A DNA stretch of 48,417 nt from Octopus sinensis (taxonomy: Eukaryota), in the NCBI RefSeq assembly GCF_006345805.1, contig NW_021834464.1, forward strand, positions 1 through 48,417, written 5' to 3'. Under the pieces are notes generated by a model. The model worked only from the letters and a program-made list of their open reading frames with translations. It searched no databases and was not told the origin of the DNA. The position numbers and the translations under genes are program-made. The stretch's first letter is position 1; every line of letters starts with the position of its first letter. Positions 35,659 to 40,627 of this stretch are shown piece after piece.

Positions 35659-36790
35659 CAGGCGTTGTACAAAATAATGAAAACACCTAGCATCATAGCT
35701 TCAAAAGCTTGTTTATTTTTATGTTTTCTTTATTTATTATTAGTGTTGCTTAATATGTTTTGCTAAAATTGCTGTTTCTTTTCAGATATCATCAGATAAA
35801 GGTAATTAAAATTTCATTAAAATTACAGGTCTATCGGACTTTCAAAGATATCAAATTGTTGGTGTTCGTATGGCAGGCGTTAACATAATGAAAACCACCG
35901 AATTGCTTGGTATATCAAGAAGTACTGTCTCGAAAGTAATAACAGCCTTTGAGAAACAAAACTCCAGAAGAAGACCAAAACTTTCAGATAGAAACCGTCT
36001 GACTCTTACGCGAATTGTTAGAAAGGATCACAAAACTACAGCTCCCGAAATTACTGCAGAGCTTAATAACCACCTCGAAAACCCAGTTTCCACAAAAAAC
36101 TGTTTGCTGAGAGTTGCACAAAACCGGAAATTACGGCAGGGCTGCTATCAGAAAACCACTACTTTCAAAAACAAACGTTGCAAAGCAATTAGTGTTGAGT
36201 AAAAACCTACAGAATTGGTCCCAAGTGCTGTGGAAGTATGTTATTTTCTCGGACGAGTCATCCTTTACCTTATTTCCGAACACCGGCTGAATAGATGTGT
36301 GGAGACATCCAAAAGAAGCATTTGACCCAGACTGCTTTCTTCCAACTGTTAAACATGGAGGAGGAACTGTGTTGATCTTCGATGTTATATCTTGGAATTG
36401 CGTCGGCCTAATGGTTTCGCTTCATGGCAGAATTAATAGTCAAGACTATTTAAGCATTTTATCTGAACAAATTCATCATATGGTTGCGGAACTGTTTCCA
36501 AAGGAAACCGCAATCTTTCAGGATGATAATGCACCAATTCACACAGATAAAATTGTTATTGAATGACATGAGGAACATTCTAGTGAACGTGAACATCTTA
36601 TCTGGCTACCACAGTCCACAGATCACAATATTATTGAACATTTATGGTGCATTTTAGAAAAACAAGTAAGGAGTCGATATCCTCCACCATCATCACTACA
36701 AGACTGTTTTAACTGAGGAATGGGAAAAAATTACTTTGGAAACAATTCAAACTTTGTACATACTTCGTAGAATTCAAGCAAAGATTGCAA
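35659..36790 (+). mobile_element. Degenerate Tc1 (DD34E) transposon, right end missing
   Basis: Starts TA-cagg; motifs LSDFQRYQIVG, FSDESSF, TVKHGGG, FQDDNAPIH, WLPQSTDHNIIEHLW. Confidence 0.92.
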
Positions 36791-36869: not shown

Positions 36870-37500
36870 AGTCTAACAAATATTTCGGAATATAAAAATT
36901 CCTTCTTCAGATATTGCTAAGAATTGATCGAGTCACTGCTATAATTTTTTTTTTTTCAACGGTTCCTAAAATATTCTTTTCGGAAGCGTCTCTGCAGTGG
37001 TCTCATGAATCTCCTTCCGGAATTCCTCATGAGAAGTGCGTGAGGGCGGCCATGTCTCGTGCACGTGTTTGCTGGCATATCTGCAGCGCTGTTTCTTTGT
37101 TATGTATCATACGTGCAATTAAAAAAAAATTATGATACATGAGCATGTTACCAGAAACGAACTTACACGCATCCGGATGTAGCTAAATAATATATTGATT
37201 GCTAATTTCCAGCCTGTTGTTAATTTGGGGCCTTAGTCTGTCTGTGAGGATAGCTTCCTTAATTCTTAGATTTCCTAATTTTTTGTCATTGACCTCAACT
37301 GTTATGCATTTGTCGGTGTTCCGGCATCGGTCCAGATGTTTTCTGAAGGAGGAGGTACGCATGTTGACCTGTTCTTTCATACGAATGTGTAATGGTCTTG
37401 CTGTGCTACCCACATAGAACTTGTTGCATTTGTTACGTTGTATTCTATACACAACATTCACTCGTTGCCATAAATCTGTGTGACGGATGGGGCAGTTAGC
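36870..37500 (-). mobile_element. Penelope-like element 3' fragment: GIY-YIG endonuclease (37183-37461) and downstream terminal region
   Basis: NVVYRIQ..KCNKFYVGSTARPLHIRMKE...LRIKEAIL...PQIN; HHR-like remnant at 36870-36920. Confidence 0.85.
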
Positions 37501-37544
37501 TACTGTACATTGATTGCTGTCCCTTGCTCGTTTCTTTGATGGGT

Positions 37545-37741
37545 ATATCTTTTTTTTTTTGCCGAACCGCTAATTTATGTGGACATAAACAAGCCAACAC
37601 CGGCTGTCAAGCGGGGGGAGAGACAAACACAGATACAAAGACGCCCATGGATAATTATATATTCAACGAGCGTCTTTCAGTCTCCGACTACCAAATTCGC
37701 TCAGAATGATATGATCGACCCGAGGCAATTATAGAAAGGAC
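37545..37741 (-). mobile_element. Diverged SINE family B, truncated at the retrozyme-like unit
   Basis: tttgccgaaccgctaa...tctttcagtctccgactaccaaattc. Confidence 0.7.
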
Positions 37742-38127
37742 TCGAGCGGTTACTGTTTACATCTCGTTCAGAGATTTATTATGCTTTTCGAAATCAGTGA
37801 CAGTAGTTACTGGGAAAAACATTAAATAGATATTTGCAAACAGGTCTCTCTTCGTCGAAAACCGGTGATTACCGTACGTTGACAAGAGGCAAATACCTCG
37901 AAACTGCAGTCCGTGCGTATCACTTAGGTTTACGAGAGTGGGATGACCTCTCTTTGCAAATATCATAAGGACACAGAAAGTGTGCCTAAAGCCAGCTGGA
38001 GACGATGATCTCCTGGGGCTAAAAGCTACAGTAACACCCACCCTTAGTGGTTAACCATATTGAGATGGCTAGTATACTTTACGTTGTCGAGCGGTTACTG
38101 TTTACATCTCGTTCAGAGACTTATTAT
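37742..38127 (+). mobile_element. Retrozyme-like unit: 345-nt monomer plus 41-nt terminal redundancy
   Basis: Direct repeats 37742-37782 and 38087-38127 (1 mismatch); central hammerhead; no coding capacity. Confidence 0.75.
37873..37917 (+). ncRNA. Type I hammerhead ribozyme, U3-A8 core variant
   Basis: cguacg UUGACAA gagg caaaua ccuc GAAA cugca GUC cgugcg; all three stems pair; predicted cleavage after 37911. Confidence 0.85.
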
Positions 38128-38142
38128 TGCTTATATATATAG

Positions 38143-38296: not shown

Positions 38297-40627
38297 TGAA
38301 ATTCCACCAGCCGAAAGCTAATCCTAGTGACCTTCCGCCAGCCCACCCATTTGACAACATGGATCTCCATAATGCCAACTGGATGCAATCAGGAACGAGC
38401 TATCACATGTTGACTGGTCCTTTACACATACACACACATCTCCACCAACCATAAAACATCTTGGCAGATCTTTGTAGACACCGTCACAGACATATGTGCA
38501 AAACACTCCCCACCAAGACCTGTGAACAAAAAGTGCAGAATCCCCCAAAACAGAAAATCCTTATCAGAAAAATAAAAAGAACAAACAAAAAAATTAACAA
38601 CTAAAGTACTGCCAACAGCAACACACACATTCGACGGCTATCGCACTGCTTGAATCTCTAAAAATATAACCTCCAACAATGCATGAAGACCCTCATCAAT
38701 AACCAAAGATCAGCTGAGGAGAAGTGGGCCATTGAAAAAATCAAACTCACCCCAAAGTGTTCTTTTCATTTGCGAGGAAACGCAGGGTCACTGTCTCCAC
38801 TGTAGGCCCTCTAATTGACGAAACTGGCACTCTCCAAGATAATGCCAAATCCATGGCCGAGATACTGCAGATACAATACTGCTCTGTTTTCAGCCATCCT
38901 GATATGGCCGATCTGGGCTGTATCAGTGATGTCAACCCCCAACACACTATATCGGACATAACGTTTAGTGCCCCTGATGTCTTAGCGGCGATAAACGAAA
39001 TAAAACACAATTCAGCAGTAGGCCCCGATAGGTTCCCTGCTTGTGTCCTGAAGGTGTGTCGACACCAACTTGCATCTCCCCTTGCTATCTGTGGAGAAAC
39101 TCACTGGATGCTGGCTATATTCCAAAAAACCTTCTGTCCCAGTCTGTTGTCCCAGTTTTCAAAAAGGGAAACAAGTCCCTTGCAGTGAATTACCGTCCGA
39201 TCTCACTCACCTCTCATATCATCAAGGTATTTGAGAGGGTGGTGAGATCTCGAATAACCCAATTTCTGGAAAGCAACAGACGGCTGATCTCCAACCACAT
39301 GGTTCCGTAATGGAAGGGACTGCCTGACGCAGCTCCTGCATCACTTTGAGGACATTTTGAGAGCTTTGGGAGAGGGCTCCAACACCGATGTCATCTACCT
39401 TGATTTCAGTAAGGCCTTCGACAGGGTCGATCACAAGATCCTATTGAAAAACTATCCAACATTGGTGTCTCTGGAAAGTTACTGAAATGGATCAAGTGTT
39501 TCCTGACAGACAGATCTCAACATGTTGTAGTTGAAGGGGTAAAATCAAGCCCAGCCAAAGTCAGTAGTGGCGTTCCGCAAAGCACTGTGCTGGGCCCACT
39601 CTTTCATCATTTACATTAATGATATTAATGACATCATCAAGCACAGCAACATAAAAATCTTTGCAGATGACTCCAAGCTACAGAAGGTCATAAATGAGGC
39701 GAGTGACCGGACATGCCTTCAGTCAGATCTACTGGCTGTTATCCAATGGGCAGAAAAAAACATATGCTGCTGAACGAGGATAAATTTGAGCTAATCCACT
39801 TTGGAAAAGAGGATGCCCTGAACTCCCATACTCCCTTCCTTCAGGTGAAACTCTCGCGGCGTCCAACAACATCAGAGACTTGGGAGTAATTGTGGACAAC
39901 AACATAAGCTGGGCCACTCATATAAACACCAAAGTTGACATGGCCCGCAGAATGTGTTCCTGGATTCTCAGAACTTTCCAGTCGAGAGATATCCACACCA
40001 TTATCCTTCTCTTCTCCACTTTTGCCCGACCCCACCTTGAATACTGTTGTCCACTGTGGTCTCCCCACACAATACAAGGTATCATAAAAGTTGAAGCACC
40101 TCAAAGGGCAATCACAAAAAAGATAGATGGCATGACAGGCCTCGACTATTGGGGTTGACTAGAAAAGCTAAAACTCTATTCTCTCCAACGTCATCGTGAG
40201 CGCTACATCATCTGCATGATGTGGAAAATATTTCATCAGCATTGCCCAAGTGTACATCCAAGGTACATCCAAGGCTTGGGCCCCGTGCCATCCGCCCAAA
40301 ACAAAAATCGCACTCTCATCTCATAACAACAATACGGCACAATTATTTCACCTCAATTGGCCCCGCTCTCTTTAACATTACACCAAAACACATTAAAACA
40401 GAAACTGACCCTGTAGGGTTCAAGAAGTCTTTGGACAGATTCCTTCAAGAAATCCCGGATAAACCCCCTACACCCGGATATGTCTCTGTAAACAATAACT
40501 CTCTACTTGAGTGGGCCATAGTGCCCAAATTCTGACTTGAAAGACTTCACCAGGTGGTGCTATTAAGTTAGACATGGCCTGGGCCAATAATGGCCGAAAC
40601 CTATCAAAGTATCAAAGTATCAAAGTA
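38297..40627 (+). mobile_element. 5'-truncated CR1-group LINE (ORF2 RT pseudogene), tail (atcaaagt)3
   Basis: NYRPISLTS, DVIYLDFSKAFDRVDH, SGVPQ, FADDSKL, RPHLEYCCPLWSP; several frameshifts. Confidence 0.95.

Follow-up and report, generated by a model that had tools for sequence, protein, structure and literature searches.

A U3-A8 hammerhead fixed in one subfamily of a retrozyme-like repeat of Octopus sinensis, and two U3·G8 subfamilies that probably followed it

The window, a stretch of 48,417 nucleotides of the Octopus sinensis genome, carries at 37873-37917 of the forward strand a small type I hammerhead motif in which the consensus C3-G8 pair is replaced by U3-A8 and which, judging from its sequence, its predicted folds and the family alignment, is likely self-cutting. 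Our comparison of genomic copies indicates that U3-A8 is the fixed state of one subfamily of a dispersed repeat and not the outcome of decay. We assign a probability of about 0.7 to the overall reading, in which this subfamily-wide core likely takes part in double-hammerhead cutting of tandem transcripts, the unit RNA being circularised and recopied by Penelope-like enzymes. The literature already describes retrozymes as well as hammerheads with U3-A8 or a palindromic stem III; what is new is a series of subfamilies ending twice in U3·G8, for which we found no published report.

The two strands of stem I (5' CGTACG, 37873-37878; 3' CGTGCG, 37912-37917) enclose the motif. Core positions 3-9 read UUGACAA (DNA TTGACAA, 37879-37885; fixed in subfamily A, to which the window copy belongs), with U3 at 37879 and A8 at 37884, and are followed by stem II (GAGG/CCTC, 37886-37889/37896-37899), which includes the pair G10.1-C11.1, by GAAA (37900-37903) and by the palindrome ACTGCAGT (37903-37910). 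Cleavage is predicted 3' of C17, at 37911. U4, G5, A6, A9, G12, A13, A14, A15.1-U16.1 and H17 are all present, and the 3-8 pair is a Watson-Crick variant of the consensus C3-G8 with a natural precedent (PMC3088659). There are three helices, with the ends in stem I. In fold predictions the monomer forms stems I and II (pair probabilities 0.94 and 0.99), and stem III arises only between two hammerheads, where the self-complementary ACUGCAGU would give 8 bp. None of 200 shuffles folded as well as 37855-37935 (z -2.8). The folds also extend stem I, with internal loops, over 37860-37931, the distal part pairing approximately 37860-37870 with 37919-37931; this predicted extension was absent from the earlier note on this DNA, as was the repeat that encloses the motif. 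The core and the palindrome themselves are as that note had read them, and its remark that standard searches overlook the motif is true both of the CUGANGA pattern and of Rfam, which gave no hammerhead match for the window motif at the gathering score nor at E up to 10. The window's core context was matched 190 times in the genome and 0 times in a reversed control, so it is not due to chance.

To define the core states, we sampled subfamilies with genome patterns in which positions 3 and 8 were left open and counted by eye the first 100 rows listed; being pattern-picked, the samples are not proportional to true subfamily sizes. On the window's stem II background (190 matches), the first 100 listed comprised 69 U3-A8, 29 U3·G8, one C3·A8, one A3·G8 and no C3-G8. 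Random decay from a C3-G8 consensus, which the earlier note had named as the finding that would overturn its reading, is ruled out by this absence of C3-G8 among the first 100 listed. Aligning family copies, as it had suggested, gave U3-A8 as the consensus, in 58 of the 59 sampled copies of subfamily A (G10.1-C11.1 in 56 of 59). With C at 10.1 (396 matches), the first 100 listed held 87 C3-G8, 8 U3·G8, 4 C3·A8 and 1 U3-A8, and an older set of 1250 matches yielded sampled copies with C3-G8 and few exceptions. The sister lineage (265 matches) has U3 throughout, with G8 in 77 and A8 in 23 of the first 100 listed. As U3·G8 thus accounts for 29/100 of the first matches listed in the window's lineage and 77/100 in the sister lineage, a Watson-Crick 3-8 pair appears dispensable for spread.

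The subfamilies differ at several core positions. F and D combine a canonical core with a C10.1·A11.1 mismatch, which is found across B-F, and subfamily C and part of B carry U4C. Subfamily E has U3·G8 in 31 of 32 copies and a TATA loop III in 30 of 32. G has U3-A8 and a short loop; H combines U3·G8 and GUU with a mismatch in stem I and a shortened palindrome (duplex -4.8 vs -11.1 kcal/mol). Conservation reaches 139-140 of 141 copies at G12-A14, U16.1 and C17, the GAAA part being partly fixed by the search patterns. An apparently near-perfect 3-8 covariation (57 U3-A8 and 76 C3-G8 vs 8 mismatched, n=141) was rejected, and its Fisher value discarded, because the patterns used for sampling left out the U3·G8 subfamilies and the copies are not independent. 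At two loci, L130 and L009, a subfamily's hammerhead is combined with the body of a different subfamily, which suggests template switching or conversion.

The hammerhead is part of an insertion of about 1.1 units with a single hammerhead (37742-38132, + strand), followed by an (AT)n tract. Its last 45 nt (38088-38132, +) repeat 37742-37786 as a Penelope-type end extension, and 11 nt are missing near 37784. The non-coding unit is about 355 nt long (353-358 nt in tandem copies), with a GC content of 44.5%, and is predicted to be highly paired when folded as a circle (z -8.4; 0 of 100 shuffles as low). A search of the species' own genome (2.7 Gb, microsatellite-rich) gave 4052 candidates, of which 40 were scored; relatives number well over a thousand, and pattern matches against control were 563 vs 18, 1250 vs 0 and 265 vs 0. 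All 29 other best loci fetched match the unit only, as partial head-to-tail tandems and inverted pieces. Among 190 copy ends, 92 fall at the tail, 57 just before it and 41 elsewhere, and copies on both strands occur at 30 of 151 loci. Tails, partial tandems and both orientations are insertion marks described for Penelope-like elements (10.1101/2021.04.23.441226). Two recognisable cores on the same strand, 353-358 nt apart, were seen in 10 of the 12 pairs listed, at 8 loci.

These features fit a non-LTR retrozyme family (PMC7229834; 10.64898/2026.07.22.740005): the unit is non-coding, falls within 150-450 bp, has a type I hammerhead and a GC content under 50%, and is predicted to form a highly self-paired circle; tandem units with two or more hammerheads exist in the family. 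The window copy, with its single hammerhead, would not be scored as active under 10.64898/2026.07.22.740005. It is probably a dead-end insertion, given this single hammerhead, the 11-nt deletion and a changed putative +1. The octopus family resembles animal non-LTR retrozymes (Mytilus, 350-390 nt; axolotl, 330/350 nt; PMC7229834; 10.64898/2026.07.22.740005) in its short non-coding unit with a type I hammerhead, its GC content below 50%, its mix of tandem and solo copies, its predicted circle with extensive pairing and its weak stem III, rescued by dimers; like subfamilies B-F here, the axolotl HHR_Amex2 is mismatched at the base of its stem II. It differs from them in the non-canonical 3-8 pair of four subfamilies and in its mostly dispersed copies of 1-2 units. 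In the literature searched we found no description of this retrozyme family, of amplified U3·G8 hammerheads or of a cephalopod non-LTR retrozyme. The sequencing runs listed included none recorded as RNA; contigs from four runs guessed to be RNA cover the unit, with the same depth profile in three large, probably DNA, runs; a step in contig depth near the predicted cleavage site likewise appears in the large, probably DNA, runs.

Close to the insertion, on the minus strand, lies a segment (37183-37569) that we take, from its motifs, to be a fragment of a GIY-YIG endonuclease; Pfam gave no match. It is very improbable that this fragment belongs to an autonomous Penelope-like element of which our repeat is the pLTR. 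The repeat does have Penelope-type ends, with partial tandems, inverted 5'-truncated copies and an end tail, and an origin from pLTRs has been reported for animal retrozymes (10.64898/2026.07.22.740005). However, the repeat is present at 0 of 19 other loci of the adjacent GIY-YIG family, which rules out the fragment as its partner, and in tandems the end of each unit runs straight into the start of the next. GIY-like sequence was found by tblastn at only two other loci of the retrozyme family. In Pfam, none of the 94 ORFs in the flanks of 159 loci matched GIY-YIG, although the window's own fragment was likewise missed; the matches there were to pieces of LINE, transposase, helicase and PHD. 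Neither an autonomous partner among the flanking ORFs of family loci nor an RT plus GIY-YIG frame flanked by the repeat within flanks of 1.5-2 kb was found. The fragment's own family is a separate, decayed Penelope-like family (2012 candidates), two loci of which (L078 and L079) have a C3-G8 hammerhead of minimal type. The neighbourhood also includes a broken Tc1/mariner-type transposase (35810-36700, +; weak HTH and Tc3 matches), immediately before the retrozyme, a copy of an abundant, unrelated SINE-like repeat (37555-37736, +; ~70% identity at several loci) and a broken LINE-like coding remnant with RT-like frames (38600-40540, +; two pieces without a Pfam match). Lünse et al. reportedly described small variant hammerheads of Penelope-like elements.

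An ATCAGT motif 61 nt before the putative start (37793-37798, +) is likely an snRNA-type promoter element. It stands at -56 to -62 in 33/42 A, 22/25 B, 8/8 C, 14/16 D, 12/14 E, 12/19 G and 11/13 H copies, in only 2/11 extra F copies, many of which are truncated, and with the same spacing before 18/20 U2 loci, the background being 0.3%. The U2 genes (L265-L284) have at least three types of upstream sequence, which share only ATCAGT at about -59. The putative +1 at 37854 is A in the family and G in the window copy, and is contained in a site (37852-37863, +) that is duplicated upon LINE insertion in other copies. The LINE, about 5.5 kb with two ORFs (zinc knuckle; endonuclease, RT, zf-RVT), uses one fixed site in the retrozyme family, corresponding to window 37852-37863, as seen at loci L181-L210 and L263/L264 (G000:C6:92139500-92157600). 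Its 3' ends run into the retrozyme repeat in 21 of 30 cases, the query's own locus counted, with duplications of 12-16 bp; one H copy contains a three-LINE array, and one LINE copy adjoins the first base of a U2 gene. In E copies at L142, L151 and L162, this site is adjoined by another element, which has a zinc-knuckle ORF and the same letters at its 3' end. Target-specific LINEs of the Tx1 clade insert in a comparable way (Tx1 in Tx1D, Keno in U2, Tx1-Mar in Mariner-N4; PMC4494074). The octopus LINE is like them in being a two-ORF APE-RT LINE with a fixed site in another repeat and, once, at U2; it is unlike them in that its target is the putative start site of a retrozyme.

Loop III occurs in five forms among the subfamilies (TGCA, TATA, TCGA, CCGG or a shortened TA), the palindrome of G/H being ACUAGU. 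A monomeric hammerhead has no need of a palindrome. By eye, the first 100 listed of the 1250 older-type matches include 66 perfect palindromes (TCGA 33, CCGG 23, TGCA 10), 21 that self-pair with G·U and 13 others, the pattern having barred A at the two middle positions. The tandem copy L014 is predicted to fold as a double hammerhead through its paired palindromes: these pair at 0.81-1.0 and both hammerheads form, as against 0.0 for stem III of the monomer. The palindromic stem III proposed in the earlier note is thus backed by covariation of stems and palindrome across subfamilies and by the dimer predicted for a real tandem; stems of this kind and dimeric cleavage are reviewed in PMC6765202. 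Covariation over the whole unit is mixed, with 21 subfamily states that keep a pair and 26 that break one.

We propose the following route for this dispersed family of head-to-tail and inverted partial copies, which bear the 45-nt tail and have no coding frame. Transcription would be driven by the internal snRNA-type promoter, with its first nucleotide some 19 nt ahead of stem I. Two successive hammerheads are predicted to pair via their palindromes and to cleave after GUC; a single copy such as that of the window is predicted to form no stable stem III. By analogy with published retrozymes, the RNA would then be ligated into a circle and reverse-transcribed in trans to more than unit length.

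The order of the core changes was approached with trees built without the hammerhead (63, 89 and 92 rows), two recombinants and copies with much missing sequence being omitted. The root was placed at the midpoint or on F, as backed by the diversity gradient, there being no true outgroup. F, D, C/B and A form successive rungs of a ladder in these trees, E lying within A; G+H (100/100) emerge from the A/B cluster, with H inside G. Within-group distances are 0.174 in F, 0.060 in A, 0.051 in G and 0.034 in H, and median end branches are 0.020 in A, 0.017 in G and 0.007 in H, H being the youngest subfamily on a tree rooted without an outgroup. A root on G, which would reverse the order, is less likely, divergence being lowest in G/H and highest in F. 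The core history that we consider likely starts with C3-G8 and C10.1·A11.1, gives U3-A8 with G10.1-C11.1 once, and then U3·G8 twice; on these trees the double change from C10.1·A11.1 to G-C accompanied U3-A8, and the older subfamilies have C3-G8. The tree test rejects a single origin for the U3·G8 subfamilies (p-AU 8e-6), which points to their having arisen separately and amplified on two bodies. A single origin of U3 is not the best tree, yet the test does not reject it (p-AU 0.069). Bootstrap prefers E nested in A and H nested in G, and A is a clade in no bootstrap tree; E or H could be retained intermediates, since monophyly of A alone (p-AU 0.059) and of G alone (p-AU 0.20) is not rejected. 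Subfamily E as a U3·G8 intermediate between C3-G8 and U3-A8 is not favoured, as E nests inside A, but the test falls short of rejecting it (p-AU 0.059). A p-AU of 0.0002 from one tree test was set aside, being confounded by the interleaving of B with A.

Between late B, the nearest C3-G8 group, and early A there are 8 majority differences in 307 columns, and 6 of them fall in the 21 nt of core and stem II (hypergeometric 1e-6, for a region chosen post hoc and changes that are perhaps not independent). Such clustered changes could be one event, the U3-A8/G10.1-C11.1 core having come to A by a single template switch or conversion, for instance from G. U3, U4, C7, A8, G10.1 and C11.1 are common to G and A, hammerheads on foreign bodies exist, and L119 is the sole copy found with U3-A8 plus the old C·A pair. 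We nevertheless consider a transfer quite unlikely. Subfamily A retains the inner stem II, loop II and loop III of B, so that a transfer would have to involve two separate patches; the G branch arises within the A/B cluster, its end branches being shorter; and possible intermediates occur on the B body, with U3·G8 in 8 of the first 100 listed.

Another explanation is that cleavage is largely dispensable, the fold being kept for recognition by the copying enzyme or for transcription, and that the core changes, U3-A8 included, hitchhike on masters. Core variants have indeed all been amplified, namely U4C (B, C), C10.1·A11.1 (B-F) and U3·G8 (E, H). Changes at positions 4 and 8 can be CpG-type transitions, C3·A8 appears in 4 of the first 100 listed with C at 10.1, and Naiad elements spread without hammerheads (10.1101/2021.04.23.441226). 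We regard this explanation as improbable: every subfamily has G5, A6, A9, G12-A14 and U16.1 in the majority of its copies despite 20-30% body divergence, allowing for the bias of patterns that fix some positions; the palindrome, of use only to a double hammerhead, has been rebuilt in five forms; and a purine-purine or C·A mismatch at 3-8 occurs in none of the amplified subfamilies, again with the bias of the search patterns. Selection is more likely to keep the fold and enough slow cleavage than the fastest core. The selection for activity put forward in the earlier note stands in part: U3-A8 appears to have come down from a master copy that amplified and whose fold is maintained, yet spread does not depend on Watson-Crick pairing at 3-8. 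The U3-A8 and U3·G8 cores may both be slow, since a deep mutational scan of a type III hammerhead found only the G3-C8 swap active in the 3-8 region (PMC9901934), a result that makes tolerance dependent on context.

The novelty that the earlier note implied for U3-A8 does not hold, as natural U3/A8 covariants were reported before (PMC3088659) and the min-HHRs of Cercyon Penelope-like elements in Schistosoma mansoni have U3-A8, with about 1,300 hits (PMC4209133). The octopus family is like the latter in its U3-A8 covariation, its Penelope-related repeats and its palindromic, dimer-type stem III. The min-HHR traits of a long stem II, an extra base between 9 and 10.1 and no loop III (PMC4209133) are not those of the window motif, which has a canonical 6-bp stem I, a 4-bp stem II, no extra base after A9 and a 6-nt stem III insert; the element here is also non-coding, with C3-G8 relatives and U3·G8 derivatives in the same family. 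A saltern hammerhead variant has U3 and G8 plus a 2-nt insertion (PMC7151607, quoting PMC3088659). It shares natural U3·G8 and the letters UUGACGA with E and H, but is a single motif of prokaryote/phage type with insertions and not, as here, an amplified animal repeat.

More tentatively, and with rather more doubt than confidence, the family may record a dated natural walk from C3-G8 to U3-A8 and on, twice in parallel, to U3·G8, in which the youngest, expanding subfamily has the weakest-looking ribozyme, attenuated, dimer-gated cleavage is selected, and U3·G8 is viable and omitted by all descriptor searches. Hammerhead censuses that demand C3-G8 or U3-A8 overlook hundreds of motifs in this genome. 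The family offers a ready-made set of natural alleles, each amplified, which differ at positions 3, 4, 8, 10.1/11.1 and 17 and in the palindrome on near-identical bodies. This set bears on how much cleavage a retrozyme needs, and on whether G·U is a step in, or the end point of, compensation in a catalytic pair.
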